Notes: generated by a model from the letters alone, not told the origin. Shown: positions 2,583 to 62,153, counted from the stretch's first letter. The stretch is DNA of 64,000 nucleotides from an uncultured Bacillota bacterium (GCA_948907985.1 CAQWMM010000005.1:5-64004); one strand, 5' to 3'. Translations and numbers: made by a program.

Positions 2583-3617
2583 ATGTCGATTATGGGTATG
2601 CGGGAATGGTTCCGCAAAAACAGAGTTATGATGGTGGTGGTTTTTGCTCTGCTGCTGGTGGGTATTTTGATTTCTTACGGTCGATTTGGCAGCAGTTCAA
2701 CTTATACGGCGGCCGATTATGAAAAGATGGTGGAACAGGCTAGAGCCGCCTATGCGGAGGACCCCACCGCGCCGGAAAATGTTTTGGCTATGTATCAAAC
2801 GCTGTCTAATTATGTGCAGTTTTTAAGCGATACCAAAGGCGATCAGGAGGAGATTAAAGCTTTGGACGCCGAGGCTGTCGGCTTTTATGACGAGTATTAC
2901 GGTTTATTGGCCGAGGAGGCGAAGAGCGCCTATCAGGCCGAGCCAAATTATGCTAACGCTTATACGGTGGCCAACTATCTGTTTGAACGCTATCGGGCGC
3001 AGGCCTCTATGGAGGGCATGGAGGGCGGAGCCGCTATGCAGGCCGAGGTTACCAACTGGATGATTGTGGCTATGGGCCATAAGGTGGACGACGACCGGGC
3101 TTTGCTGGCAGAAAATCCGACAGATTCTGTTACCCTGGCGGATTTGGGCGACGCGGTGGGCGCTTTGGCCTATTACCGGCATGAGCAGGACGGCAGCTAT
3201 GATTTGACGGCCAGCTATCAGGAAGCTTTGGATCTGTTCCAGCAGGCGATTGATAACTGCCCGGCTGACGCTGAACCTGCTGTTTTGGCCAGTTATTATC
3301 TGAAGAAAGCGGAATGTGCTTTTAATATGAATGATACCGCACAGGCCGAGGAACTTTATAAAGCCGCTTTGGCCGCTGCCCCGGCAGATTTTGACGCTAA
3401 TATGAATTATGCTTCTTATCTGTTGAACGTCGGTCGTATTGACGAGTGTCTGGCGGCTCTGGAGGCGTATAAGCCCCAGATTAGCGAGGAAGACCCCAAT
3501 TACCAGTCCTTCCAGCAGTATTATGATTCGGTTGTCGCTTTAAAGGAGCAGCTGGATAATCCGCAGGTTGATGAGGAAAACGGCGGCGCTGAAAATAACG
3601 AAAGCGGCGCGAACTAA
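2583..3617 (+). CDS. Membrane-anchored TPR-like repeat protein
   Basis: N-terminal TM helix then Ala/Tyr/Glu-rich helical repeats. ATG 8 nt after GGAGGA. Confidence 0.5.
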   Translation: MSIMGMREWFRKNRVMMVVVFALLLVGILISYGRFGSSSTYTAADYEKMVEQARAAYAEDPTAPENVLAMYQTLSNYVQFLSDTKGDQEEIKALDAEAVGFYDEYYGLLAEEAKSAYQAEPNYANAYTVANYLFERYRAQASMEGMEGGAAMQAEVTNWMIVAMGHKVDDDRALLAENPTDSVTLADLGDAVGALAYYRHEQDGSYDLTASYQEALDLFQQAIDNCPADAEPAVLASYYLKKAECAFNMNDTAQAEELYKAALAAAPADFDANMNYASYLLNVGRIDECLAALEAYKPQISEEDPNYQSFQQYYDSVVALKEQLDNPQVDEENGGAENNESGAN

Positions 3618-3698
3618 ATGTCAAAATTTTCTGCTGAATAAATTTTTAGCAAGCTGAAATGATTAAAAAACTAAAGATTGAAGAAAGAGGTGGGCAAA

Positions 3699-4925
3699 AT
3701 GTTACAAGGTAATGCCGTAATTGCTCAATCCGGCGGGCCGACCGCGGTTATTAACAGCAGCGTTTGCGGCGCGGTGCAGACCTGGTTGGCTGCGGAGAAC
3801 CGGCCCGGCACAATTTATGCGGCAATTTCCGGAATCAAAGGCTTTTTTGATGAGGATTTGCTGGATTTGGCCGAGCAACCGGCTGATGTTATCGCCGGTT
3901 TGCGCTGGACGCCCGGCGCCGGTTTATTCTCCTGCCGCTATAAAGTAAGCGAGGAGGAATACCCGCGTTTGGTGGAGATCTGCCAAAAGTATAACATTCG
4001 TTATTTCTTCTATAATGGCGGCAATGATTCCATGGATACCTGCAACAAAATGAGCCTGGCGGCGGAAAAATTGGGCTATGAAATGCGGGTTATCGGCATC
4101 CCCAAAACGGTAGACAATGATTTGCCGATTACGGATCACTGCCCCGGCTTTGCCAGCGCGGCCAAGTATCTGGCGGCAACGGTTATGGAAACCGGCATTG
4201 ATTTGGCCTCGGTGGCCACCAAAAACAAGGTTTGCATTATTGAGGCTATGGGGCGCAATGCCGGCTGGCTGACCGCAGCGGCAGCCCTGGCTAAACGTAC
4301 GCCGGAAGAAGCGCCGCATCTGATCTATCTGCCGGAGGTTCCTTTTGATACGGAACAGTTTTTGCTGGACGTTAAGGCTGTTTATGACCGCCTTGGTTAC
4401 TGCTTTGTGGTGGCCAGCGAGGGTATTATGGATAAAGGCGGCAATTATATCGCCGCCGACGGACGGGTGGACGCTTTTGGCCATGCCCAGCTCTCTGGCG
4501 CGGGCGAAACGCTGAAAAACCTGGTGGAAGAAAGGCTGGGCCTGAAAGCCCGCTGCAACACGCTGGGAACGGCCCAGCGTTCCGCTATGCACTTTGCCTC
4601 CAAAACCGACGCCGACGAGGCCTACGCCACCGGCGTCAGGGCGGTGGAGCTGGCTCTGGCCGGCCAAAGCGGCCTGATGATAACCCTGAACCGTGAGCCG
4701 GGCGAGGAATACCGCTGCACTTTGGGCGAAGCGCCGCTTAGCGCCGTAGCCAATGTGGAAAAGAAAGTTCCGCGTGAATGGGTTAACGCCGAGGGCAACT
4801 ATGTTACCGAGGACTTTATCAAATACTGCCGCCCGCTGATCGAGGGCGAAGTGCCGGTGCCGATGCGCGGCGGACTGCCGGATTATGTAGCTTTGAATAT
4901 GGAACTTGGCCGGGTTAAAAAGTGA
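3699..4925 (+). CDS. pfp: 6-phosphofructokinase, likely PPi-dependent type
   Basis: Start MLQGNAVIAQSGGPTAVINSSV; MGRNAGWL; PFK fold. 409 aa is typical of the PPi-PFK group. Confidence 0.85.
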   Translation: MLQGNAVIAQSGGPTAVINSSVCGAVQTWLAAENRPGTIYAAISGIKGFFDEDLLDLAEQPADVIAGLRWTPGAGLFSCRYKVSEEEYPRLVEICQKYNIRYFFYNGGNDSMDTCNKMSLAAEKLGYEMRVIGIPKTVDNDLPITDHCPGFASAAKYLAATVMETGIDLASVATKNKVCIIEAMGRNAGWLTAAAALAKRTPEEAPHLIYLPEVPFDTEQFLLDVKAVYDRLGYCFVVASEGIMDKGGNYIAADGRVDAFGHAQLSGAGETLKNLVEERLGLKARCNTLGTAQRSAMHFASKTDADEAYATGVRAVELALAGQSGLMITLNREPGEEYRCTLGEAPLSAVANVEKKVPREWVNAEGNYVTEDFIKYCRPLIEGEVPVPMRGGLPDYVALNMELGRVKK

Positions 4926-5035
4926 ACATAAAATAATCCTGATAAAATAAATCCCTTTGCCTGGGCTGCAGAGGGATTTATTTTGCTTTGCGGGCATATA
5001 AGAATATAAATAATTTGGCAAGGATCGTGATAGCT

Positions 5036-5959
5036 ATGTTTGGTAGGGCGGCGGACGCGCACTGTGATACGGTTGGGCGGCTGGGGGCTTTGGATTTGGC
5101 TTTGGGCTGTCCCGAGGCGGCACATTTAGATTTTCCACGGTTGCGACAAAATGTTAAGCTGCAATTTATGGCTTTTTTTCTGCATCAGGCTGCGCCGGAA
5201 CAGGCCTGGCAGGATTTGCGGCGTATGCGCCGTAATTTGCAGGTGGCCATGGAACTTTGCGGTGGGCTGGAGTTGATGCTTAATTTGCGTCAGGCCGGGT
5301 TAAAGCCGGGCGTGCAGCTGGTTTTGGCGGTGGAGGGACTGGATTTGCTGGCTGGCGTTTCATCGGCGGAGGAGTTGTATCGTTTGGGGTTTCGGAGTTT
5401 GGGGCTGTTTTGGAACAACGACAATTTTCTGGGCTGCGGCGCGGACGCGGTGGGCGCGGCGGACTGCGGCCTGACTAAAGCCGGGCGGGATTTTGTGGTC
5501 TATGCCGAAAGCCGGGGGTTTTTGCTGGATTTGGCGCATGCTTCGCAGAATAGTTTCTGGCAGGCGGCGGATTTACAGCGGAAGCCCGTTTTTGTCAGCC
5601 ATGCCTGCTGCCAGGCGCTTTGTCCGCACCGGCGCAATTTATCCGATGAACAGCTGCGCCGCGTCGGCGCAAGCGGCGGTTGGCTGGGCGTTACCATGGC
5701 GCCGGGCTTTTTGCGTCTGGATGGCCAGGCGGCTTTACCGGATTTGCTTAAACATATTCAACACGCAGTGAATTTGGCGGGGGAAGACGCGGTTGGTTTT
5801 GGTTCTGATTTTGACGGCGTGGAGCATTTGCCGCAGGGCATTGCCGGTGCGCAAAGCTGGCCAGATGTGGCGGAGGCGCTGCTGGCGGCGGGGTTCAGCC
5901 AGAGGCAGGCCGAGAAAATTTTGGGCGGCAACCTGCTACGCTTTTTGCGCGAATATTGA
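5036..5959 (+). CDS. Membrane dipeptidase (peptidase M19 family)
   Basis: DAHCDT metal-binding motif near the N-terminus; 307 aa; renal-dipeptidase fold signature. Confidence 0.7.
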   Translation: MFGRAADAHCDTVGRLGALDLALGCPEAAHLDFPRLRQNVKLQFMAFFLHQAAPEQAWQDLRRMRRNLQVAMELCGGLELMLNLRQAGLKPGVQLVLAVEGLDLLAGVSSAEELYRLGFRSLGLFWNNDNFLGCGADAVGAADCGLTKAGRDFVVYAESRGFLLDLAHASQNSFWQAADLQRKPVFVSHACCQALCPHRRNLSDEQLRRVGASGGWLGVTMAPGFLRLDGQAALPDLLKHIQHAVNLAGEDAVGFGSDFDGVEHLPQGIAGAQSWPDVAEALLAAGFSQRQAEKILGGNLLRFLREY

Positions 5960-6224: not shown

Positions 6225-6755
6225 TTACACCTCCTTATCTTTATTCATGGCGTTAAACAAGGCTTGCAGCTTGCTTAAACGTATGTCAATATCCTGATGG
6301 TTACAAGAGCAGGTTTGCCGGTTTAAGTCCGCCCCGCAGTCAGGGCAAAGCCCTTTGCAGTCCGGCCGGCAGAGCGGCTGCATAGGCAGCTCCAGCAGCA
6401 GAGCGCGCAACAAAGCCGGTGCAATATCAATTTCATCACCGCTGAAAAAGCTGACTTCATATTCGTCATCTTCAGAGAGCGCCTCTGGTTTGTTGGTAAA
6501 CGTTTCAGCAATATCGGCGCTTATGGTCTGCTCAAAATCAGCCAGACAGCGCGAGCAGCTAAGCCGCAGTTTGGCCGAGGCGCGGCCTTGCAGTTCCAAA
6601 AAAGGGGCGGCGTTTTCAATCTGGCCGGCAAAATGCAGGCTGCCGGCCAAGGCAAGTTCCGGGTAGCCGTAAGCGGCGGCGTCCACCGGCTCCGCCAGTT
6701 TCAGCTTTTCGGAGCATTGGGTTGTGCTTTTAACTTTTGTAACATTTATTAACAT
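6225..6755 (-). CDS. yceD: YceD/DUF177 protein (23S rRNA accumulation protein)
   Basis: C-terminal CRPDCKGLCPDCGADLN...CSC zinc-ribbon-like motif; directly upstream of rpmF. Start trimmed to the MLINVTK Met. Confidence 0.8.
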   Translation of the reverse strand: MLINVTKVKSTTQCSEKLKLAEPVDAAAYGYPELALAGSLHFAGQIENAAPFLELQGRASAKLRLSCSRCLADFEQTISADIAETFTNKPEALSEDDEYEVSFFSGDEIDIAPALLRALLLELPMQPLCRPDCKGLCPDCGADLNRQTCSCNHQDIDIRLSKLQALFNAMNKDKEV

Positions 6756-6913
6756 GCTAGCTATTATACAATATTGGGGCGGGCTTGTCAAGATTAAATA
6801 ACAAAATTTTGTTATATATCCAGGCAAAAAATTTTTTTCCAAAGAATTTTTGACCAAAAGGTTGTAATGTTAAAAAACATGTGGTAAAATAACTTAGATA
6901 AGGGTTATAGGGG

Positions 6914-7897
6914 GTGCAAACGCTGTTTAATTCTTTTATTCAAAAATATAAATATACGCTTTTAACTGTGGTTTTGATGCTGCTGGTTTTGGTGTTTTTC
7001 TGGTTTATGGATGTATCTTATACAATTTATGGCGTGGCGATTGATTCGGAAACCGCCGAGTCCAATTTGCCGCTGACGCCGGAGTATCAGGCCAGCCAGG
7101 ATTATGGCGCGGTGGTGCTGATGTATCATCATATTCTGTCGGATGCTGAAATGGCCGGTGGCAAATATGCCGGCAACAACGCGATTATTTCTGAAAGCCA
7201 GTTTGCCGAAGAAATGCGCTATCTTTCCGAACATGGCTATCATACCTTTAAGATGTCGGAGGTGGCGGCGATTTTGCATAATTCCCTGCCTTTTCCGGAA
7301 AAATCCGTAATCATTACTTTTGACGACGGTTATGCCAGCAACTACACTCTGGCTTATCCTGTCTTGCAGAAGTATAATCTGAAAGCTTCTATTGCGGTGG
7401 TGGTTATTTCTTCCATTGTGGCCTCGGACGACGGCGGGCTTACACAGCAGAACATTCCACATTTAAGTTTTGACCAAATGCGGGAAATGAATGATTCCGG
7501 TTTGGTGGAAATCGGCAGCCATAGTTATGACGGCCATGGGATGATCCAGTCTTCCAAAGGCGGCGGTTTGGGCCGGTTCTTCATTGACCATAAATACCTG
7601 ACTGCGGAAAGCCGCCGGGAGAGCGACGCGGAATATAAAGACCGGATTAATCAGGATTTGCGTTTATCCAAGTATATTCTGGAATCAGAGCTGAACACTG
7701 TGGTTAATTATTTTGCCTATCCTTACGGCGTAACCAACAGCGCCAGCTACAGCGCTTTGGCTAATAACGGTTTTTTGGTGGCGGTTACGACTTCTAAAGG
7801 GACTATTAATAAGCAGAGCGATCCTTTGAAGCTGAACCGGCGCAATGTAGATCAAAATATCAGTTTGGATGAGTTTGCCCGCTTGCTTTCTAGGTAG
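6914..7897 (+). CDS. Polysaccharide deacetylase (NodB-homology) family protein, membrane-anchored
   Basis: N-terminal TM helix; VVLMYHHI and IITFDDGYASN motifs. GTG start after GGGGG RBS. Confidence 0.8.
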   Translation: MQTLFNSFIQKYKYTLLTVVLMLLVLVFFWFMDVSYTIYGVAIDSETAESNLPLTPEYQASQDYGAVVLMYHHILSDAEMAGGKYAGNNAIISESQFAEEMRYLSEHGYHTFKMSEVAAILHNSLPFPEKSVIITFDDGYASNYTLAYPVLQKYNLKASIAVVVISSIVASDDGGLTQQNIPHLSFDQMREMNDSGLVEIGSHSYDGHGMIQSSKGGGLGRFFIDHKYLTAESRRESDAEYKDRINQDLRLSKYILESELNTVVNYFAYPYGVTNSASYSALANNGFLVAVTTSKGTINKQSDPLKLNRRNVDQNISLDEFARLLSR

Positions 7898-7935
7898 CGG
7901 TTGGCATGGCTTCGCTGGGAGGCGGAATTTTGAGC

Positions 7936-8925
7936 GTGAGAATTGCAATAGACGCTATGGGCGGCGATTTGGCCCCCAAAGCATTGGTGGACGGAGCGGT
8001 TAAGGCCGCCTCCGGGGTGCAGGATGTGCAGATTATTTTGGTGGGGCAGACGGATAAACTTCCGCAGGAAAGCTCTTTGCCTGATAATGTAACCATTGAA
8101 GAGGCCGCCACCGTGATGGCTATGGATGAGTCGGTGGAGAACCTGCGCAAAAAACGCGACAGTTCTATTTGGGTGGCTACCAAGATGGTTAAGGAGGGGC
8201 GTGCGGACGCTGTGATTTCGGCTGGCAGTACCGGTGCGCAGATGGCCTCGGCCCTGCTGCTTTTGGGGCGAATCCCCGGTATTACCCGGCCCGGAATCTG
8301 CACGGTGTTTCCCACGGTTAAGGGAGGTTCCATTTTGCTGGATATTGGCGCCAATCTGGAGTTGGATGTGGAACAGTATGTTCAGTTTGCAGTTTTGGGC
8401 AAAGTGGCAGCGCAGGCGCTGCTTAAAGTGGAAAATCCCACTATTGGTCTTTTAAATAATGGTACTGAGGAACATAAGGGCACTGATAAACTGGTTGAGG
8501 CGCATCAGCTGTTGAAAAAATCCGGCTTAAATTTTGTAGGCAACTATGAAGCCCGGGATTTGATGTCTGGACAGGTGGACGTGATTGTTACCGACGGTTT
8601 TACCGGCAACGCGGTGTTGAAGACCTCGGAGGGCCTGGCCAAAACCTTTATGAGCCTGCTCAAACAGGAATTGTCCGCTGGTATGACGCGGCGTTTGGGA
8701 GCGGCTTTGATTATGCCGGGCCTAAAGAAACTGAAACAGATGTTGGATTATAAGGCTATTGGCGGCGCGCCGCTTTTGGGGGTTGGCGGGTTAAGTTTGG
8801 TTTGCCATGGCAGTTCTGACGCGCAGACGATTGAATCCGCTATTAAGCAGACTGTCGGTTTGCAGCAGAGCGGTTTTATTGAATCGCTGCGGGAACAGGC
8901 GGCTAGCTTTTTCCAGCAGAAATAA
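7936..8925 (+). CDS. plsX: Phosphate acyltransferase PlsX
   Basis: VRIAIDAMGGDLAP N-terminus; full PlsX length. Confidence 0.9.
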   Translation: MRIAIDAMGGDLAPKALVDGAVKAASGVQDVQIILVGQTDKLPQESSLPDNVTIEEAATVMAMDESVENLRKKRDSSIWVATKMVKEGRADAVISAGSTGAQMASALLLLGRIPGITRPGICTVFPTVKGGSILLDIGANLELDVEQYVQFAVLGKVAAQALLKVENPTIGLLNNGTEEHKGTDKLVEAHQLLKKSGLNFVGNYEARDLMSGQVDVIVTDGFTGNAVLKTSEGLAKTFMSLLKQELSAGMTRRLGAALIMPGLKKLKQMLDYKAIGGAPLLGVGGLSLVCHGSSDAQTIESAIKQTVGLQQSGFIESLREQAASFFQQK

Positions 8926-8953
8926 AAAATAAAATAATGAAAGGCGATTTAAT

Positions 8954-9184
8954 ATGGATACGATTGAAGTATTGCAAAATGCGATAAAAAAAGAATTGGG
9001 CCGTGATTTGGGCGATTTGACTGTGAACACCACCTTTGAAGAACTGGCTTTGGACTCTTTGGACGTGGTGCAGATGGTTATGGCTATTGAAGAGGCCTTT
9101 GAAATTGAAATTGCCGACGAAGATGTGGACGGTATCAAAACAGTTGGCCAGCTGGTGGAATATATCGAAGAAAAAAGCAAATAG
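8954..9184 (+). CDS. acpP: Acyl carrier protein
   Basis: 76 aa; LALDSLDVVQMVMAIEE (phosphopantetheine Ser in the DSLD motif). Confidence 0.95.
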   Translation: MDTIEVLQNAIKKELGRDLGDLTVNTTFEELALDSLDVVQMVMAIEEAFEIEIADEDVDGIKTVGQLVEYIEEKSK

Positions 9185-9237
9185 TATAAACAAATAATAT
9201 ATTTTGTAAAAACACAAGTGTTATATGGAGATTTGAT

Positions 9238-9975
9238 GTGAATACAGAGGGAGTCAATAAAAATAGAATAGAAAAACTGGGCGAACTGGCCGAAAAACTG
9301 AATTGGCAGGGCGACTTGCATTTGTTGCAGCAGGCGCTGACTCATCCCACTTATTTTGAGGGGCAAAAGACGGTCGGCGATGAGGACAACCAGCGGTTGG
9401 AATTTCTCGGTGATTCTATTTTGGGTTTTGTGGTGGCAAGAGAACTTTTTAAGCGCAATCCTGCCGCCGATGAGGGTTATTTAAGCAAAACCAGAGCGGC
9501 TTTGGTTTGTGAGGGTTCCTTGGCGGATTTGGCCCGGGAGCTTGGCCTGGGTGATTATATCATCATGGGCAAGGGCAGCCTGAAAAACGGCGAGCAGAAC
9601 CGCAATTCCATTTTGGCCGACGCTTTTGAGGCGGTGGTGGGTGCAATGTATCTGGCGCAGGGGCAGGACAAGGTGGAGGCCTTTTTGCTGGCGCGCTTTA
9701 CAACAGAACTGGAAGAAAAGGTGGGCGACCGCTATGAGGATTATAAGGGCTTGATGCAGATGTTGGTGCAAACCCTTTCTGAGCGGCATATTACCTATCA
9801 GCTGCTTTCGGCCACCGGGCCGTCGCACCAGCGCACCTTTACGGTGGCTTTGGTCTATTGTGGTGAAACTTTGGCCTCGGCCTCCGGCCCCAGCAAAAAA
9901 GAGGCGGAACAAAAGGCCGCCCGGCTGGCCTGGCAGCGGCAGGATGAATGGGTGGCGCGGCTGGCGCGCGGTTGA
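9238..9975 (+). CDS. rnc: Ribonuclease III
   Basis: ERLEFLGDSILG RNase III signature; C-terminal dsRBD. Confidence 0.95.
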   Translation: MNTEGVNKNRIEKLGELAEKLNWQGDLHLLQQALTHPTYFEGQKTVGDEDNQRLEFLGDSILGFVVARELFKRNPAADEGYLSKTRAALVCEGSLADLARELGLGDYIIMGKGSLKNGEQNRNSILADAFEAVVGAMYLAQGQDKVEAFLLARFTTELEEKVGDRYEDYKGLMQMLVQTLSERHITYQLLSATGPSHQRTFTVALVYCGETLASASGPSKKEAEQKAARLAWQRQDEWVARLARG

Positions 9976-10008
9976 TTAAATTGCTAAAAATGAGAAGTGA
10001 GGTGGAAT

Positions 10009-11079
10009 ATGGCGCAGGCAAAAAAACATATTCTGCCTTTTTTTATTCCGCATTTGGGCTGTCCGCAGCAGTGCGTTTTCTGTGATCAGCATAAGATTAC
10101 CGGGCAGCAGCCGCCGGCGGCGGAACAAATTGCCGCGGCTATTGTTGCTTTGCCGCCGGAATTGGCGGCTGATTTTGAGTTGGCGTTTTATGGCGGCAGT
10201 TTTACCGCCTTGCCGCTGGATTTGCAGACATATTATTTGGAACCGGCGCGGCGCGCTCTGGCCGAGGGCCGGCTTGGCTCGGTGCGGGTTTCTACCCGGC
10301 CTGATTGCATTAACCCGCAGATTTTAACGGTTTTGCGTCAATACGGGGTTAATACGGTGGAATTGGGCGTACAGTCGATGCTAGATGAGGTTTTGCAAAA
10401 AGCCCGGCGCGGCCATACGGCGGCGCAGGCGTTGGCGGCGCTCCGTTTGTTGCAGCAGGCCGGCTTTACCGCCGGGGTTCAGCTGATGCCCGGCCTGCCG
10501 GGTGAAAGCCCGGCAGCTTGTCTGGCGGGGGCCGGGCTGCTGCTGCGGGAGCGGCCTGCTATGCTGCGCATTTATCCGACTGTGGTTTTGCAGGGCTCTG
10601 GCCTGGCTGCTTTATATCAGCGGGGGCAATACCAGCCGCTGACTCTGGACGAGGCGGCGGCGGTTACGCTGGCGTTGAAAATTATGGCCGATGATTTGGG
10701 GATAAAAGTGATCCGGATGGGCTTGCAGCCAAGCGAAACCCTGAACAGTCAGGTGTTGGCCGGACCCTATCATCAAGCCTTTGGCAGTTTGGTGCAGGGA
10801 CTTTACTGGCGGAATAAAATTCTTTGGGCGCTGCAAAAATGGCCGGGCGCGCAGGTGGTTGCTCTGGCCCGGCAGGATATATCGGCGGCGGTTGGCCATA
10901 AACGGCAGAATACGGCTTTTTATCAACAGCTTGTGCCGGGATTGCGGATTACGGCCGCTGACCTACCGGTCGGTTCATCATTGCTTATTTGGGCGGATGG
11001 CCGGCGGCAAATGTTTACGGATGTTGATTTTCGGCGCGGTTGTGATGTTATAGGCTGTGTAATGGCGGGGATCGTTTAG
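10009..11079 (+). CDS. Radical SAM protein (the conserved rnc–smc intervening gene of Clostridia-like genomes)
   Basis: CPQQCVFC = CX3CX2C motif near the N-terminus. Located between rnc and smc. Confidence 0.75.
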   Translation: MAQAKKHILPFFIPHLGCPQQCVFCDQHKITGQQPPAAEQIAAAIVALPPELAADFELAFYGGSFTALPLDLQTYYLEPARRALAEGRLGSVRVSTRPDCINPQILTVLRQYGVNTVELGVQSMLDEVLQKARRGHTAAQALAALRLLQQAGFTAGVQLMPGLPGESPAACLAGAGLLLRERPAMLRIYPTVVLQGSGLAALYQRGQYQPLTLDEAAAVTLALKIMADDLGIKVIRMGLQPSETLNSQVLAGPYHQAFGSLVQGLYWRNKILWALQKWPGAQVVALARQDISAAVGHKRQNTAFYQQLVPGLRITAADLPVGSSLLIWADGRRQMFTDVDFRRGCDVIGCVMAGIV

Positions 11080-54899: not shown

Positions 54900-55090
54900 T
54901 TGTGGAAAAAAAATTGTATTGTGGAAAAAAGTTTGAAAACTTTTGTCGATTTGGTGGAAAAAAAATGTTGAAGTCTGGATTATGCTGTTAGATTTTTTTC
55001 CTTACTGTCGAATAGAGCAAAATAATACCGAAAAAAGTCTGACTTTTGCATATAAGCGGTAGAGGAAAGTCTTTAGGGATGTCGAAAACT
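54900..55090 (+). promoter_or_regulatory. spo0A control region: three Spo0A-box-like TGTCGAA/T elements, triple GTGGAAAAAA direct repeat, candidate sigma-H-type promoter
   Basis: TGTCGAT 54944-50; TGTCGAA 55006-12; TGTCGAA 55080-86. GTGGAAAAAA at 54902, 54921, 54954. AGAGGAAAG (55061-69) followed by GTCGAAAA. Confidence 0.5.
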
Positions 55091-55224
55091 TTATTACAGG
55101 ATTAATCCTCAAAAATATTTTTAATTTATATTAAAAGCTACTTAATAGGCCTCTAAGGTATAAAATGAAACAATAACTTTTCAGGACTGAAACTCATGGT
55201 AGCATTTGGAAAGGAAATGAGATT

Positions 55225-56007
55225 ATGATGGGCGAAAATGGCAAGAAAAAAATTAATGTAATGCTGGCGGATGACAACCGGAGTTTCTGCGCTGAACTTA
55301 AGGAATTTTGGGATATGCAGGAAAACATAAACGTCTGCGGTATTATGAACAATGGCGAACAAGTGCTGGAACAGCTGGAAACCCTGAGGCCGGATATTAT
55401 TGTTTTGGATGTGGTTATGCCTAAAGTGGACGGCTTCGGCGTGCTGGAGGCTATCCGGGAACTGCCGGAGCAGCAGCGCCCGCAGGTGGTGGTGCTGTCG
55501 GGCCTGATGCAGGACGATATTATGCGCAGGGCTATTGAACTGGGCGCAAAATATTATATGATGAAACCAATTGATTTTCAGGTTTTAACCAACCGCATAC
55601 TTTCGCTGATGTCGGCCCCGGTTAAGGCAACCACCGGGTTCTCGCCGATGGTGCGCAACCTGGATATCGAGGTTACCAGGGTTATTCAGCAAATGGGCGT
55701 GCCGGCGCACGTTAAAGGCTATCAGTATGTGCGTGATGCGATCATTTTAGTGGTGGAGGAAATGAACCTGCTGGGCGCTGTTACCAAAGAACTTTACCCG
55801 CTGATTGCTGAAAAATACAACACCACCGCCAGCCGGGTGGAGCGGGCGATTCGCCATGCAATAGAACTGGCCTGGGACCGGGGCAATGTGGATATGATGA
55901 ACAAATTCTTTGGTTATACGGTGAACATGGAGCGCGGCAAGCCGACCAACAGCGAATTTATTGCCATGGTGGCCGATCGCCTGCGGATTGGGGAAAAAGT
56001 AATCTAG
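55225..56007 (+). CDS. spo0A: Sporulation master regulator Spo0A
   Basis: Receiver domain (VMLADDNR...DVVMPKVDG). C-terminal Spo0A_C with [20 protein letters not shown] and [15 protein letters not shown], near-identical to the Bacillus consensus. Confidence 0.97.
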
Positions 56008-57965: not shown

Positions 57966-59330
57966 ATGGCGGCTGATAAATTTAATATGTATGGTCTGAT
58001 TGCCAAAAAGCGGGACGGCGGCCTTTTGCAGGCCGAAGAAATCCGCTTTTGGCTGCGCGGTATGCTGGACGGGTCTATTCCCGACTATCAAACGGCGGCC
58101 ATGCTGATGGCGATTTTTTGGCGCGGTTTGACTGAGGCGGAAACTTTCGCCCTGACCGAGGAGATTGTGGCTTCTGGCGAGCGGCTGGATTTAAGCGGTA
58201 TTGACGGGGTTTGTGCGGACAAACACTCTACCGGCGGGGTGGGGGATAAAACCACGCTGATTGCTATGCCGCTGGCGGCGGCCTGCGGGCTGAAGATTGC
58301 CAAGATGAGCGGCCGCAGTTTGGGCAAAACCGGCGGCACGGCGGATAAACTGGCCTCTGTGCCCGGTTTTAGGCTGGAACTGCCGGAGCCTGCGCTGTTG
58401 GCGCAGGTGGCAGAAATTGGCCTGGCGGTGGTGGCGCAGACCAAGAATTTGACGCCGGCGGATAAGCGTCTTTATGCTTTGCGGGATATGACGGCTACGG
58501 TGGATTCGCTGCCGCTGATTGCCGCCAGTGTGATGTCGAAAAAAATCGCGGCTGGCGCGGGAGTGATTGTGTTGGACGTGAAGTTTGGTTCGGGCGCTTT
58601 TATGCCGGACGCGGCCAGCGCGGCGGAACTGGCGCGGCTAATGGTTAAGCTGGGGCGCAGCGCCGGCCGGCGGGTGGAGGCGGTGATTTCTTCTATGGCG
58701 GCCCCTTTGGGCGCGGCGGTGGGCAATGCGCTGGAGGTGGCCGAGTGTGCCGATATTTTGCAGAATAAGCCGGATTTGGCGGTTTCGGCTGACTTGCAGC
58801 GGCTGGCGGTGGTTCTGGCCGGGGAAATGCTGTATTTAGGCGGTTTGGCGGAATGCCGGCGGGACGGCTGGCAGCAGGCCGAGGCGGCTTTGCAGGACGG
58901 CCGGGGCTGGCAAAAGCTGTTGGCATTTTTGCAGGCGCAGGGCGGAGATACCGAAAGTTTGCAGGCCGGCGAACTGGTACAGGCCAAACACGTTGTGCCG
59001 GTTTTGGCGGCTAAAAACGGCTATCTGTCGGCGGCGGACGCGGCGCAGGTGGCGGAGATTGTGCAGCGCCTGGGCGCAGGCCGCGAGCGCGTGGAGGATG
59101 AGATTGATTATCAGGTGGGCGTGCGGATGATAAAACCTGCCGGCGCTCAAGTTGTGGCCGGGGAACGCCTGGCCGAGGTTTACGCCAGCGATTTGGCGCA
59201 GGCCGAGGCGGCCAAAAAGGATTTGCAGCGGGTTTTGCAGGTTTTGCCGGAGCCGCCGCAGTTGGAGCCGCTAATTTGGGGACTGGTGGACGAACGGGGG
59301 AACGTTGTTCCCTGGGCGGAAGTTAAATAA
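57966..59330 (+). CDS. pdp: Pyrimidine-nucleoside (thymidine) phosphorylase
   Basis: MYGLIAKKRDGG...; DKHSTGGVGDKTTL glycosyltransferase family 3 motif; ATG 1 nt after the deoB stop. Confidence 0.92.
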   Translation: MAADKFNMYGLIAKKRDGGLLQAEEIRFWLRGMLDGSIPDYQTAAMLMAIFWRGLTEAETFALTEEIVASGERLDLSGIDGVCADKHSTGGVGDKTTLIAMPLAAACGLKIAKMSGRSLGKTGGTADKLASVPGFRLELPEPALLAQVAEIGLAVVAQTKNLTPADKRLYALRDMTATVDSLPLIAASVMSKKIAAGAGVIVLDVKFGSGAFMPDAASAAELARLMVKLGRSAGRRVEAVISSMAAPLGAAVGNALEVAECADILQNKPDLAVSADLQRLAVVLAGEMLYLGGLAECRRDGWQQAEAALQDGRGWQKLLAFLQAQGGDTESLQAGELVQAKHVVPVLAAKNGYLSAADAAQVAEIVQRLGAGRERVEDEIDYQVGVRMIKPAGAQVVAGERLAEVYASDLAQAEAAKKDLQRVLQVLPEPPQLEPLIWGLVDERGNVVPWAEVK

Positions 59331-59337
59331 AAATTAG

Positions 59338-59366
59338 TTGCCCTTTTTTTGTTTCTATGGTATAAT
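59338..59366 (+). promoter_or_regulatory. Promoter TTGCCC-17-(TGg)TATAAT with extended –10
   Basis: agTTGCCCtttttttgtttctaTGgTATAATaaaa. Confidence 0.55.
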
Positions 59367-59502
59367 AAAAATTGCACAAAGACTGAAAATTGAATTGGCG
59401 GTTAGCCCTCAGGAAGATAATTATACCCAAGTGATTGGTTTATAGTTGGCAGAATGAGGGATTGGGGCCCTCTCCACTTTGTAAGACGGGGAGGTGATGT
59501 TT

Positions 59503-59598
59503 ATGTTTTGGTTAAACATAGCGGCTTTAGTTATGCAAGCTGTTCAGCTTGGCATACAGGTTGCCGAGTTTATATTGAATCATGGCAAAAAAAAATAA
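59503..59598 (+). CDS. Small hydrophobic peptide (31 aa; 33 aa if the 59497 ATG is used), type-I-toxin-like / small membrane protein
   Basis: MFWLNIAALVMQAVQLGIQVAEFILNHGKKK. GGGGAGGTG SD 7 nt upstream. Own promoter and about 125-nt leader. T-run terminator follows. Below the ORF-track size cut-off. Confidence 0.5.
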   Translation: MFWLNIAALVMQAVQLGIQVAEFILNHGKKK

Positions 59599-59640
59599 CC
59601 GCCCTCCCAGCAAAAGGTTGCGGTTATTTTTAACCAAATT
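59599..59640 (+). terminator. Putative terminator after the small peptide gene
   Basis: aaccgc...gcggtt stem then atttttaa. Confidence 0.4.
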
Positions 59641-59795
59641 CCTAAGGGCTGACCCGATTTAAGGATCAGTTCTTTGTGCTTTTATTATACTAGAAAAGCT
59701 GAAAAAAGTCAAGATGAATTTTAAGAGTGGCCAAACGAATAGTTTTAAGCCTATCTGTTCTCACCCTCTCCGTCATATCTTCCCTAACGGTCAGA

Positions 59796-59888
59796 TATGC
59801 CACCTCCCCCTCTGGGGGAGGCAAGTTTTCCTGCTTATAAGATGAATATTTAAACCTGGCTCCCCCTTTGGGGGAGCTGTCAGCGGCG
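59796..59888. repeat. Two near-identical GC-rich palindromic hairpins (cCTCCCCC-tYt-GGGGGAGg) about 50 nt apart in an AT-rich spacer
   Basis: cacctccccctctgggggaggc (about 59800-59822) and ggctccccctttgggggagc (about 59858-59878). A third GGGGG run at about 59911. Confidence 0.6.
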
Positions 59889-59963
59889 ACTAATAGGGAG
59901 CCGATGACTGAGGGGGCTGGAAGAAGATAAAACAATGCATTTTGTCCAATCCTCAAAAAATAA

Positions 59964-60000
59964 CCCTCTACCTGCGGTTTTGCAGATAGAGGGCTTTTTT
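59964..60000. terminator. Bidirectional rho-independent terminator
   Basis: ccctctacctgcggttttgcagatagaggg flanked by a T-run on + and an A-run (a T-run on –). Confidence 0.7.
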
Positions 60001-60206
60001 CAACTTTCAACAAGTTCGACGTTTTCTAAAGCATAACGTAATGCCATACACATTACCTCGTTTCGAGAATAGCCGGTTCGGTTTGCCAGATCCTCATAAG
60101 AGTCTAGCAAGGCCTTTTCTATTCTTATGCTTGTATTGACAGGCTCGTATATACTTTTCCCTAATCGTTTAGGTTTAACAATAAATTTTTCTTCCATTGT
60201 CATCAC
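60000..60206 (-). CDS. Ribbon-helix-helix (CopG/Arc-like) DNA-binding protein
   Basis: 68 aa; KPKRLGKSIYEPVNTSIRIEKALLDSYEDLANRTGYSRNEVMCMALRYALENVE shows the beta-strand then two-helix RHH pattern. Confidence 0.65.
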   Translation of the reverse strand: MMTMEEKFIVKPKRLGKSIYEPVNTSIRIEKALLDSYEDLANRTGYSRNEVMCMALRYALENVELVES

Positions 60207-60338
60207 CTCGTTTGAATTATAAGCTAAATATAGTATATATTAAATATAAAACATAATATATACCAAAAACATATTGAAAACATATTGAAGATATACTGAA
60301 AGAGTGTTATAATTATAAAAAATTATGGAGATGATATT

Positions 60339-60812
60339 GTGGATGAAAAAAAAGAAAAACGAAAGATAACTGCCAAATTAGTTAATGATATGGATGATTT
60401 GATTAAAGATCCTCTGTTAAAAGATAAATTGACAGAAGAGGAACGGGCAATTTTAAAAAATATTGATAAGCAGGAAATATTTACGTTAGTTAAATTTTTT
60501 TCTCTCAAAGAAATTGCAAACATGCAAAAGATGAGAGATAATAAACAATATCAGAATGTGTTGGAACTTTTAGGCAAAATTGATTTTGCGGCGATAAGCA
60601 GACTGTGCAGAAGTTCAGAAATCAGTTCGATAATGCGCCAGGCCAATTTTAGTATAAAACTAAAGGCGATAGACGCGGAACTGGCTAAGGAGTTTGACGA
60701 AATTTTGCACGAACGTTTGGCTTATAATAAACTGCGCGGATTTGATAGTTTTGTTATGGCGCTGCGCACCGGCGTTAGGGCAATAATAAAGTTATATATT
60801 GAGGACTATTAA
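60339..60812 (+). CDS. Hypothetical 157-aa helical protein, no recognisable family, in AT-rich islet
   Basis: Lys/Glu-rich; codon usage and GC clearly different from neighbours. Divergent from the RHH gene, sharing a repeat-containing promoter region. Confidence 0.5.
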   Translation: MDEKKEKRKITAKLVNDMDDLIKDPLLKDKLTEEERAILKNIDKQEIFTLVKFFSLKEIANMQKMRDNKQYQNVLELLGKIDFAAISRLCRSSEISSIMRQANFSIKLKAIDAELAKEFDEILHERLAYNKLRGFDSFVMALRTGVRAIIKLYIEDY

Positions 60813-60918
60813 ACTTATTTGCAAAATTTGTATAAATTTAGTGATTGATTTTTCTGCCGAAATTTGTTATAATAAAAAACAGAATAGTTGTAAAAAATTT
60901 GGCAGGAGGTTTGACAAA

Positions 60919-61665
60919 ATGCTTTTAGAAAATAAGGTGGCGGTGATTACCGGCGGCAGCCGCGGGATTGGTTTGGCAACGGCCAGGGCTTTTTTGGCCG
61001 AGGGCGCGGTTGTTGTGCTTTGCGCCAGCCGGCAAACTACCGCTGACCAGGCTGTGGAAAGCCTGCAAGCTGCGTATCCCGACGGAAAGGTGGAGGGCAT
61101 TTGCCCCAAGCTGGCCGATTATGATGCTGTTAAACAGGCTTTTAGCCGGATTTCGGAAAAATATGGCCGGATAGATATTTTGGTGAACAATGCTGGAATG
61201 TCTGACAGTACGCATTTTGTCGAATACAGTGAGGAAACCTTTGATAAAGTGTTGGATTTGAACATTAAGGCGGTTTATAACTGCACGCGCGCCGCGGTTG
61301 ATTATATGGTGGCGCAGGGCGCGGGCGTTATTTTGAACACCTCTTCGATGGTCAGCATTTATGGCCAGCCCAGCGGCGTTGCTTATCCAACGTCTAAATT
61401 TGCGGTTAATGGCTTTACGGTATCTTTGGCCAGAGAGTTGGGGCCGAAAGGTATCCGGGTGAACGCCGTGGCGCCGGGGATTATCGAAACCGATATGATG
61501 CGCGCTGTACCGCTGGAGGTTATCGAGCCGATGATCGCCCAAATTCCGCTGCGCCGTTTGGGGCAGCCGGAAGATATTGCCAACGCCTTTGTTTTCCTGG
61601 CCTCGGATAAAGCTTCATACATAAACGGCGCGGTGCTGAACGTGGACGGTATGGCGCGCGTTTAA
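60919..61665 (+). CDS. SDR-family oxidoreductase, 3-oxoacyl-ACP reductase (FabG)-like
   Basis: VAVITGGSRGIGLATA Rossmann motif; NNAG; YPTSK catalytic motif. Confidence 0.85.
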   Translation: MLLENKVAVITGGSRGIGLATARAFLAEGAVVVLCASRQTTADQAVESLQAAYPDGKVEGICPKLADYDAVKQAFSRISEKYGRIDILVNNAGMSDSTHFVEYSEETFDKVLDLNIKAVYNCTRAAVDYMVAQGAGVILNTSSMVSIYGQPSGVAYPTSKFAVNGFTVSLARELGPKGIRVNAVAPGIIETDMMRAVPLEVIEPMIAQIPLRRLGQPEDIANAFVFLASDKASYINGAVLNVDGMARV

Positions 61666-61783: not shown

Positions 61784-62153
61784 ACGATTAAATGCAACTT
61801 ATATTTTAATATATTTTGGGCTGGAAGTCAATGGTTTTTTGAAATAAATTTTTTTGCGGAATTTTTATGGATAAAATGAATAAAAATAATGCAGAATTAA
61901 TAAAATTTTTCGCAAAATTGTATTGCTAAAATTTGTGATTAATGTTATCATATAACTAGTGTAATATATAATTAAGAAATCTATGGGGCTTTGATTGTTG
62001 ATTTGGCTCAGAATTTGGCAGAGGTAGGAACAAGCAGGTTTTTAATCCATGCTTTTCTTATATAAATCCTAATCATTTTATTAAAACGCAGGGTTATGGT
62101 TATACTGTCCAAATAACCATGGTTCTGCCAAAAAAACTTGGAGGTGAAAAGAT

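Follow-up and report, generated by a model that had tools for sequence, protein, structure and literature searches.

How should a low-GC islet that lies between pdp and a gene for a short-chain dehydrogenase/reductase (SDR) in an uncultured Bacillota bacterium be understood: as one new module, or as parts that merely travel next to each other? The window analyzed is the stretch of 64,000 nucleotides GCA_948907985.1 CAQWMM010000005.1:5-64004, and all positions without another reference are counted from its first letter. A first-pass annotation of this DNA had described three open reading frames (ORFs) in the islet, coding for a small peptide, a ribbon-helix-helix (RHH) regulator, and an orphan 157-aa protein; all three are present where they had been placed (Table 1). 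The same annotation had joined regulator, effector, and peptide into one possible defense or addiction module, and in this point we arrived at a different view. We favor, with more confidence than doubt and well short of certainty, the reading that the islet holds two independent, self-contained units plus a spacer: a type I toxin-antitoxin-like cassette (Unit A) and an RHH repressor of mobile-element type together with an orphan gene (ORFan, Unit B). Within this reading, the toxicity of the peptide, the antitoxin action of its antisense RNA, the binding of the RHH protein to its operator, and any present function are predictions. The two units are best regarded as neighbors by way of one or two acquisition events, whose cargo they were, and not as members of a functional triad.

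Table 1. Predicted features of the islet with positions in the window, strand, and basis of assignment.
Feature	Position	Strand	Basis
Low-GC islet of ~1.48 kb, bordered by the stop codon of pdp and the ancestral promoter of the SDR gene	59332..60807	.	BLAST borders, GC content, GC content at third codon positions (GC3)
Promoter of the small-peptide (putative toxin) mRNA, TTGCCC-17 nt-TATAAT with TG extension	59338..59366	+	Promoter scan, 10/12
GGCGGTTAGCCC motif in the putative toxin 5' untranslated region (UTR)	59397..59408	+	Also in 5' UTRs of family members
Hairpin sequestering the ribosome-binding site, CCCTCTCC (59468-59475) with GGGGAGG (59488-59494)	59468..59494	+	Minimum free energy (MFE) and centroid fold of 59373-59642
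Gene for the small hydrophobic peptide of 31 aa, MFWLNIAALVMQAVQLGIQVAEFILNHGKKK	59503..59598	+	ORF list; GGAGG 8 nt before ATG 59503
Antisense RNA (putative RNA antitoxin), ~90 nt, 5' hairpin and terminator	59589..59683	-	Covariance model, fold
Bidirectional intrinsic terminator, 12-nt perfect arms AAAAATAACCGC / GCGGTTATTTTT	59591..59631	.	Inverted repeat I21, folds
Antisense RNA promoter, TTGACT-17 nt-TATAAT	59684..59712	-	11/12, top promoter match of the region
Structured spacer, 240 bp	59713..59956	.	Two 17-nt palindromes in a long imperfect hairpin
Intrinsic terminator of the RHH gene	59962..59995	-	14-pair stem followed by T-run, terminator scan
RHH gene (CopG/Arc-type), 65 aa	60000..60197	-	Start chosen as the codon with a ribosome-binding site
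Candidate RHH promoter	60243-60216	-	Promoter scan
Divergent promoter region with 11-bp periodic repeats, putative RHH operator	60234..60301	.	Core 60266-60301 (AAAACATATTG, 3.3 copies)
ORFan promoter, TG-extended	60285-60313	+	Promoter scan; repeats overlap its -35 box
157-aa ORFan, predicted all-helical	60339..60812	+	GGAG 8 nt before GTG 60339; own promoter

The peptide-antisense cassette and its family

Judged from its sequence, the segment 59338-59712 is a type I toxin-antitoxin-like cassette with a putatively toxic peptide. The predicted promoter of the peptide mRNA lines up with the TTGACT-17-TATAAT promoters of related cassettes from Monoglobus (see below) and is followed by a 5' UTR of ~120 nt. 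A motif related to the one in this leader, CGGTTAGCC, recurs in the antisense RNA, where it is part of the 3' arm of hairpin 1, and its CGGTT is nearly invariant in the antisense alignment. In both the MFE and the centroid folds of the mRNA, CCCUCUCC (59468-59475) pairs with the ribosome-binding site at 59488-59494; family members have equivalent hairpins of anti-Shine-Dalgarno and Shine-Dalgarno sequences, often closed by a GAAA loop. In-frame alternative starts at 59494 (GTG) and 59497 (ATG) give a range of 31-34 aa for the peptide, the first 26 residues of which have a grand average of hydropathy (GRAVY) of 1.37 and which ends in a KKK tail. Type I toxins are generally small (<60 aa), with a transmembrane domain and a charged C-terminus (PMC6563280), and the hydrophobic window peptide with its predicted transmembrane stretch has this size and shape. 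What the first-pass annotation had called a toxic-like small peptide turned out to belong to a conserved cassette laid out like a type I toxin-antitoxin locus.

Opposite sides of the terminator stem are bordered by an A-run and a T-run, and the peptide's KKK tail and stop codon are read from the A-run together with TAA. The antisense promoter is directed towards the 3' end of the small ORF, and its -35 and -10 boxes do not vary within the family alignment. The antisense RNA folds with a z-score of -2.7. The two predicted transcripts are perfectly complementary over ~47 nt (59590-59636), a stretch that includes the last three codons. Furthermore, the region with the toxin promoter and the start of the 5' UTR (59338-59416) and the region with the antisense promoter and the start of the antisense RNA (59639-59712) are inverted copies of each other (repeat I1, 33 nt at 76%; 75 nt at ~75% by BLAST), and as a result both RNAs carry a hairpin motif of the CGGUUAGCC type. 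This hints at an origin of the antisense gene by inverted duplication of the toxin leader.

In the scheme that we propose for Unit A, a constitutive-looking promoter would give rise to an mRNA of ~265 nt (~59373-59636) for a membrane peptide of 31-34 aa with a KKK tail, and the hairpin that buries the ribosome-binding site would hold its translation back. A stronger, convergent promoter would drive the synthesis of the ~90-nt antisense RNA (~59677-59590). Both RNAs would end at the one bidirectional terminator, and pairing of their complementary 3' ends would lead either to the decay of the toxin mRNA or to a block of its translation, as in the 3'-overlapping families of Gram-positive bacteria and in par (PMC7472228, PMC6563280, PMC8594479). 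Unit A may thereby act as an autonomous selfish or stress cassette.

The 3'-overlap layout is that of type I families from Gram-positive bacteria (PMC6563280, PMC8594479). The convergent promoters and the common bidirectional intrinsic terminator, which result in complementary 3' stem-loops, are found in par/Fst-RNAII of pAD1, as are a hairpin sequestering the ribosome-binding site of the toxin and a hydrophobic peptide of small size whose C-terminal tail is charged (PMC7472228). Fst differs by its PXXXG(C) motif, which the window peptide lacks, having no Pro at all; its one Trp is at position 3 of the 31-aa form, and Fst has a conserved Trp. The predicted antisense RNA of the window overlaps the last codons of the ORF, whereas that of Fst/RNAII does not (PMC8594479). 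A second complementarity at the translation start of the kind of DRa/DRb in Fst/RNAII was not supported in the window by comparison of RNAduplex energies with those of shuffles, and the cassette gave no sequence or Rfam match to par/Fst and no match to a toxin family of Pfam or NCBIfam. TxpA/RatA, BsrG/SR4, YonT/SR6, and CD2517.1/RCd8 of C. difficile have a convergent antisense RNA encoded at the 3' side that partly overlaps the mRNA and the end of the ORF, as is predicted here, and their toxins likewise combine a hydrophobic N-terminus with a lysine-rich C-terminus; these Bacillus and Clostridioides families are not homologous to each other in sequence (PMC6563280, PMC8594479). The cassettes described here differ from them in several respects: their peptides have 22-40 rather than 30-59 aa, the overlap of ~47 nt is essentially the terminator, the sampled members are mostly located between core chromosomal genes and not in prophages, and the A-tract of the terminator doubles as coding sequence for the KK tail and the stop codon.

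The lead to a wider family was a weak DNA match of 59574-59689 to a record of Monoglobus pectinilyticus (locus L099, NZ_OY725742) with four tandem cassettes at a period of ~334 bp. Each of these has a TTGACT-17-TATAAT promoter, CCUCCC in the 5' UTR pairing with a GGGGG ribosome-binding site, a 22-aa peptide (MEYVYIIIFMIVFITLIESIKK), a TAACCGCCC...GCGGTTA terminator, and a convergent TTGACA-17-TATAAT promoter. The part that the window and Monoglobus have in common is the antisense side (59589-59689, 69-73% nucleotide identity to three of the copies), and the peptides are unrelated in sequence. Both share ATTGAATCA (59567-59575, just 5' of the terminator A-tract) in different reading frames (L-N-H versus I-E-S), indicating that it is conserved at the RNA or DNA level and not as protein.

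With a pattern derived from the alignment (TATAATAAAARCA, 50-80 nt, GGGCGGTTAYTTTT), 42 metagenome stretches were retrieved, among them several with two to three tandem copies; the pattern specifies 25 bases, and ~0.06 chance matches were estimated. The antisense pattern had zero matches in a scan of viral contigs. A covariance model (R1) was built from nine sequences, the window being excluded, and scored the window element with 50.8 bits (E = 7e-7) as its sole match in the 64 kb, next to 61 further matches. The family comprises at least 62 copies in 44 sequences (the 42 metagenome stretches, the Monoglobus record, and the window). In the model-guided alignment, 93% of the cells were standard pairs versus 26-46% with slid partners, 11 of 17 pairs changed on both sides, and none of 500 shuffles reached any of these measures. 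All nine pairs of hairpin 1 covaried, and the foot pair of the terminator was G-C in 24 and A-U in 21 of 48 sequences. An alignment fitted to a model leans towards that model, and the margin over the slid controls is still large; with the raw MAFFT alignment, RNAalifold recovered the terminator alone, hairpin 1 requiring the model-guided alignment. Read with this caveat, the sequence covariation supports a conserved RNA structure of the family.

At 48 of the 62 matches there is a convergent ORF of 22-40 codons, which is preceded by a ribosome-binding site and ends at the terminator. All 31 distinct family peptides are hydrophobic (GRAVY mostly 0.8-1.9) and have a KK C-terminus; this tail and the stop codon are encoded by the terminator A-tract and the first bases of the stem (AAA AAR TAA CCGCC). 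The neighbors at 11 cassette loci were mostly core genes, coding for flagellin (twice), PFOR, RecN, an aminoacyl-tRNA synthetase, RimM, AhpC, MerR, and others; several had no Pfam match, and one was a Fic/DOC-domain protein. In two unrelated metagenome contigs (L110, 253-4838; L140, 5068-8927), the flagellin gene is flanked by cassettes on both sides. The contigs that harbor cassettes span 36-60% GC.

The family has no entry in Rfam, Pfam, NCBIfam, PHROGs, or PADLOC; in Rfam, the window scored 26.3 bits against OrzO-P (threshold 60) and a Monoglobus copy 28 against ohsC (threshold 50). Its peptides were not found in the literature searched. According to the summary given in PMC8594479, Fozo et al. 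2010 predicted >2000 unnamed candidates, and it is possible that the cassettes are already among these. They apparently constitute a new, so far undescribed and widespread family whose features resemble those of toxin-antitoxin loci of type I.

Of the Monoglobus records, L099 has an unrelated tandem repeat right after the four cassettes (4813-5574; period 393 bp, 1.9 copies, 91% matches), where the distributed gene table for NZ_OY725742 lists no gene. This record and L098 are named 'plasmid 19' and 'plasmid 18', respectively, and have ~176 kb each, yet they contain genes for DAHP synthase, glycogen phosphorylase, ComEC, and a potassium channel, which are housekeeping genes, and could be parts of a chromosome; a plasmid context should therefore not be deduced from them.

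Among the alternatives, the one that survives best concerns the nature of the peptide, which might be a benign small membrane protein (e.g. one that regulates a transporter or a stress response) tuned by a cis-antisense RNA, or an incidental ORF beside an RNA that alone is conserved. We consider this unlikely. The antisense RNA and the terminator are conserved at the nucleotide level next to freely diverging peptides, ATTGAATCA is kept in differing frames, the ORF is missing at 14 of the 62 loci, and the cassettes mostly stand between core genes and not on mobile elements. Despite this divergence, the remaining 48 loci have retained a strongly hydrophobic, KK-tailed ORF of 22-40 aa with a ribosome-binding site; the sequestration of this site and the tandem multi-copy arrays add to a set of traits that are hallmarks of type I toxins (PMC6563280, PMC8594479).

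The RHH protein, its promoter region, and the 157-aa ORFan

The 65-aa protein of Unit B is very likely an RHH protein, as the first-pass annotation had proposed, and here sequence, profile, and fold evidence agree, each line being weak if taken alone. Its homologues are 34-48% identical, and the family alignment gave the common pattern xS(I/V)R(I/V) ... SRNE(L/V)(I/M) ... Y(A)(L/V)(E)N. A homologue with 36% identity passes the Pfam RHH_1 cut-off at 30.8 bits, and the window protein matches PHROG 5118 with E = 2.7e-5. When a profile of three family members was compared with the PDB, the RHH antitoxin EndoAI (E = 0.017) and NikR (E = 0.27) were weak matches. The single-sequence AlphaFold2 (AF2) model has two confident helices with a predicted local distance difference test score (pLDDT) of 84-94, and, as a monomer, it lacks the ribbon strand. 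With Foldseek, the best-ranking matches were all RHH proteins (CdbA, Arc, CopG, VapB, AmrZ, FitA) at E values of ~0.5, which are nonsignificant.

The homologues occur in varying company. The closest one on a plasmid (40% identity, E = 3e-8) is encoded by the 3.7-kb rat-gut plasmid pRGI00522 (L100), where its divergent neighbor codes for a true DUF6809 protein (E = 2.4e-18) and is followed by the gene of a Rep_3 initiator. On viral contigs, the divergent neighbor is an Ltp-type lipoprotein (L105), a choline-binding-repeat protein (L107, with a 620-aa ORF that is TraG/VirD4-like by eye alone), or a 57-aa acidic protein (L101); in the Monoglobus record L098 it is a 56-aa hypothetical protein. Further homologues were found on the viral contigs L102-L104 and L106. 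Since the divergent partner is a different one in each context, the RHH protein appears to be a generic regulator of mobile elements and not half of a conserved pair.

In two of these viral contigs, a stand-alone protein made up of the Spo0A C-terminal DNA-binding domain adjoins the RHH homologue (L101, 2740-3081, Pfam E = 1.9e-30; L105, 3061-3321, Pfam E = 5.5e-33), and such phage-borne Spo0A_C proteins are notable. In the window, the distance from the host spo0A gene (55225-56007) to the islet downstream of it is 3.3 kb, which is probably a coincidence.

With regard to the promoter region, the first-pass annotation had described three direct repeats within a promoter shared by the RHH gene and the ORFan. 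The repeats stand, and in place of the shared promoter the scan gave two separate, divergent ones. Tandem Repeats Finder assigned a period of 11, 3.3 copies, and 84% matches to 60266-60301, which consists of two exact AACATATTGAA units and one 8/11 copy, the third having been counted by hand. A looser 11-bp periodicity and an inverted copy (60232-60247 versus 60282-60297) extend to the candidate RHH promoter (repeats D3, I9). RHH dimers lined up on one face of the helix would bind the AACATATTG repeats, which have a length of 11 bp and extend over the -35 box of the divergent promoter, and this binding would repress the ORFan and probably the RHH gene, too. Unit B could be described as a repressor-controlled accessory gene of mobile-element origin.

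This arrangement resembles that of the CopG, Arc, and Mnt repressors, in which a small beta-alpha-alpha protein, which the 65-aa product here very likely is as well, is likewise encoded beside a divergent promoter with short direct repeats at helical-turn spacing, and the presence of homologues on a plasmid and on viral contigs is a further likeness. It differs in the ~20-residue N-terminal extension of the window protein, which taken alone stays below the Pfam cut-off, in an operator that is putative, and in the regulated neighbor, which is an ORFan and not a rep, ant, or toxin gene. An RHH-type II toxin-antitoxin operon is not what was found either: the RHH gene and the ORFan are oriented divergently, each with its own predicted promoter, and the search for toxin families gave no match for the 157-aa protein.

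The ORFan appears to be a genuine gene. When the same AT-rich DNA was simulated with a first-order Markov model, an ORF of its length arose in 0.03% of the cases, and its codon pattern is of the coding type, the GC contents of the three codon positions following GC1 > GC3 > GC2. The orphan status claimed for its product held up well: the protein matched itself alone in 5.8 billion clustered proteins and in a full phmmer/HMMER pass over 1.84 billion representatives. There was no significant match in Pfam, PHROGs, NCBIfam, PADLOC, or the PDB sequences, and tblastn gave zero matches in phages, plasmids, and viral contigs. The single-sequence AF2 model reached a pLDDT of 39.

One lead was obtained from the C-terminal part. 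Residues 93-150 gave a sub-threshold match to DUF6809 (E = 0.033, 15.5 bits at a cut-off of 27), and the pairwise alignment with a DUF6809 protein extends over this region as well, with a shuffle p of 0.045; the global alignment gave 24% identity. The lead gains some weight from the true DUF6809 protein that occupies the equivalent position beside the RHH homologue of pRGI00522. This 91-aa protein, an example of DUF6809 (PF20648), has in common with the ORFan the divergent position relative to a homologous RHH gene and a weak similarity over the C-terminal 60-90 residues. The ORFan differs in its ~70-residue N-terminal extension, in a score below the threshold, and in that no Rep gene follows it. 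Too few DUF6809 relatives were gathered by tblastn and two scans of viral contigs, the link being a lead only, and DUF6809 is mentioned nowhere in the literature searched. The ORFan product may be a soluble, helical protein with an accessory ('moron'-like) role and possibly a DUF6809-like domain at its C-terminus.

The arrangement on pRGI00522, with its RHH gene divergent from a true DUF6809 gene and then Rep_3, together with the sub-threshold match and the pairwise alignment of the same ORFan region, would also fit a decayed remnant of the replication control of a plasmid or an integrative and conjugative element, in which an RHH-repressed DUF6809-type gene was once followed by a Rep gene that has been lost and the ORFan has no present function. 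This is still less likely than a benign peptide in Unit A. The DUF6809 score is far below the cut-off and is surpassed by plainly spurious matches to EarP and TRM, and BLASTP did not find the link. The ORF is intact and fixed at 100% identity, and both its predicted promoter and its ribosome-binding site are good; no fragment of a Rep, relaxase, or integrase gene was detected in the ORF list and the DNA searches.

Two units or one module

The decisive question is whether the components of the islet co-occur elsewhere. None of the 42 metagenome cassette loci and also not the Monoglobus cassette locus encodes a relative of the RHH protein or of the 157-aa protein. Conversely, the cassette model had no match in the RHH-homologue loci searched (L098, L100, L101, L105, and L107, out of nine loci). 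The only match in PADLOC-DB v2 was to PDC-M60B (13.6 bits, E = 0.011, 34 residues) and is not meaningful. A three-part defense module is unsupported because no component of the islet accompanies another one at any of the other places examined.

It was nevertheless conceivable that the small peptide, the RHH protein, and the 157-aa protein form one new three-part defense or addiction module, in which the RHH protein controls the effector and the peptide is the toxin or a co-effector. The three genes do stand together in one insert that is fixed in the species. The Ltp-type lipoprotein family acts in superinfection exclusion, and the divergent position of such a gene next to an RHH homologue in one viral contig means that RHH-controlled accessory genes may be of the exclusion kind. 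Besides the separate occurrence of the parts, the changing partners of the RHH homologues, and the lack of a meaningful PADLOC match, the local anatomy argues against the single module: the cassette has promoters and a terminator of its own, and the RHH terminator and the 240-bp spacer lie between it and the remaining genes. We regard this proposal, with which the first-pass annotation had started, as very unlikely.

To a variant of the two-unit arrangement we attach an equally small probability: the ORFan would be a new kind of effector (anti-phage or exclusion, or a regulator of host development), and the cassette would keep the islet, devoid of mobility genes, fixed, so that a minimal 'addiction-stabilised accessory gene' unit would result in place of a chance neighborhood.

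The preferred reading as two independent units has to be weighed against a number of observations that do not sit easily with it. All promoters, RNA ends, and the start codon are predictions. Beyond the 3' overlap, the complementarity between the 5' part of the antisense RNA and the 5' part of the toxin mRNA was no better than that of shuffled sequences in the window (RNAduplex -21.1 versus a shuffle mean of -22.4 kcal/mol), and the same test was borderline for the Monoglobus copies (shuffle fractions 0.02-0.06). The window peptide is longer and, with a GRAVY of 0.65-0.76, less hydrophobic than most family members. The 14 loci without an intact ORF, which is interrupted by a stop codon, frameshifted, or lost, indicate that decay is common in the family, and the window copy could be inert. 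Copies of the islet in other strains are 99.9-100% identical and leave no variation for a ratio of nonsynonymous to synonymous substitution rates (dN/dS) of the three ORFs. In Unit B, the window RHH protein alone scores below the Pfam RHH_1 cut-off (17.5 versus 20.5 bits, E = 0.004), the operator was assigned from position and periodicity alone, and the AACATAT-like motif found upstream of several RHH homologues is weak and, in AT-rich DNA, no more than suggestive. Finally, the 240-bp spacer is not accounted for by two units.

This spacer folds unusually well, with z-scores of -3.6 and -4.5 on the two strands. Its palindromes (CTCCCCCTNTGGGGGAG; 59804-59820 and 59860-59876) are found nowhere else in the window, and it carries a GCTCYCCCTTTGGGRGAGC element. 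The 34 nt at 59857-59890 are 88% identical to a double-hairpin element in the metagenome contig L135 (5255-5300), in which the hairpin pair stands 5 kb from the cassette of the same contig; the contig is otherwise unrelated. An 88-aa gene called at 59690-59956 on the minus strand is regarded as doubtful; it has no homologue and an intermediate GC3, crosses both palindromes, and overlaps a promoter.

Insertion, distribution, and significance of the islet

The sharp drop in base composition relative to both flanks that had initially drawn attention to the region was borne out. In 300-bp windows, the GC content falls from 0.60-0.66 inside pdp to 0.25-0.46 over ~59250-60900 and returns to ~0.53 in the SDR gene. 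The block 60001-61000 is the minimum of 64 one-kb blocks (0.337; window mean 0.526). GC3 values are 0.348 for the 157-aa ORF, 0.318 for the RHH gene, and 0.40 for the small ORF, compared with 0.52-0.70 for the other 38 genes measured; as the genes of the islet are themselves low in GC3, the low GC content is not due to intergenic DNA alone.

For comparison of the pdp-SDR junction, relatives were chosen by ranking pdp homologues on identity and examining their contigs. Those with pdp 78-81% identical to that of the window represent three lineages (L087/L088/L089; L092/L093; L097), all of which share with the window the gene order spoIVB, spo0A, deoB, pdp, SDR, epimerase, and methylmalonyl-CoA decarboxylase genes. 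In these relatives, the gap between pdp and the SDR gene is 98-182 bp. BLAST homology to the sister-species loci stops at 59320-59331 and restarts at 60808-60821, from which an insert at ~59332-60807 was deduced. Its left end directly follows the stop codon of pdp, and its right end is at the stop codon of the 157-aa gene; the subsequent SDR promoter region (60815-60918) can be aligned by eye with the relatives' sequence. The length of ~1.5 kb given in the first-pass annotation was correct, and its borders (59338-60900) have to be shifted, 60808-60918 being the ancestral SDR promoter.

Counting only sites covered by a strain contig, the islet was found in three metagenome-assembled genomes (MAGs; GCA_949935695.1, GCA_948746715.1, GCA_949069005.1) and in seven independent sequencing runs at 99.7-100% identity. 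It is fixed in its species and absent from sister species. The comparison of the loci establishes a species-specific insertion of low-GC DNA that, from its composition and distribution, is foreign. The horizontal origin proposed earlier has withstood examination: beyond the absence from the sister species and the deviant GC3, relatives of the islet's components are limited to the Monoglobus record, the rat-gut plasmid, and viral contigs. Across the family, the islet with its composition is not a conserved feature, and the 157-aa protein has no match to a housekeeping family. Native DNA with a low GC content of the ordinary regulatory or intergenic kind, such as the AT-rich intergenic stretches at 54900-55300 (GC ~0.30) and 61800-62100 (GC 0.26), is hardly a credible explanation, as the low GC runs through two coding genes with GC3 of 0.32-0.35, outside the range of the other 38, and the entire segment is missing from the orthologous junction of the sister species, which we count as its refutation.

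The mode of entry left few traces. In line with the first-pass annotation, no integrase-sized ORF is present, and none of the islet ORFs had a recombinase match in Pfam. A convincing target duplication was looked for at both junctions and not seen; TTAAA (5 bp) is all they have in common, which is compatible with chance. The nearest tRNA gene, for tRNA-Arg, lies 900 bp away past the SDR gene, and the islet is not inserted in a tRNA gene; with no integrase or recombinase, no att-type flanking repeats, and no tRNA insertion, it has none of the attributes of an integrative element. That the islet is a piece of a known phage or plasmid was considered and rejected, the sole DNA match being that to the antisense region of the cassettes in Monoglobus.

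The site just 3' of pdp is a synteny breakpoint of the clade. In L090, pdp is followed by genes of a two-component system (3227-5224, histidine kinase and response regulator), and in L094 by genes for a GNAT acetyltransferase and an ABC transporter (6431-10421; two permeases, a substrate-binding protein, and an ATPase). The source lineage belongs to uncultured spore-forming Bacillota that are represented solely by MAGs and read assemblies. Among the matches listed in the species-representative genome collection, no pdp exceeded 49% identity, and the protein database had relatives of 78-84%. Short-read contigs of other strains end inside the cassette (L150 and L151 at 59481, L152 at 59543, L153 at 59388), and the inverted repeat in the cassette may be the cause of these assembly breaks.

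For the RHH proteins, a family of gut-Clostridia mobile elements with varying partners has emerged, which is a warning against calling an RHH gene plus an unknown neighbor a module. The 157-aa gene is a documented true ORFan that is intact, has a predicted promoter, is fixed in its species, and lacks a homologue in ~15 billion proteins. The cassette family stands out by its compact design, in which the terminator A-tract and the first stem bases double as KK tail and stop codon and both RNAs carry the CGGUUAGCC hairpin motif; the covariance model R1 can now be used to annotate further cassette loci. The finding at the level of the family and the terminator-encoded design do not overturn expectations and should be of interest to specialists in toxin-antitoxin systems and small RNAs.

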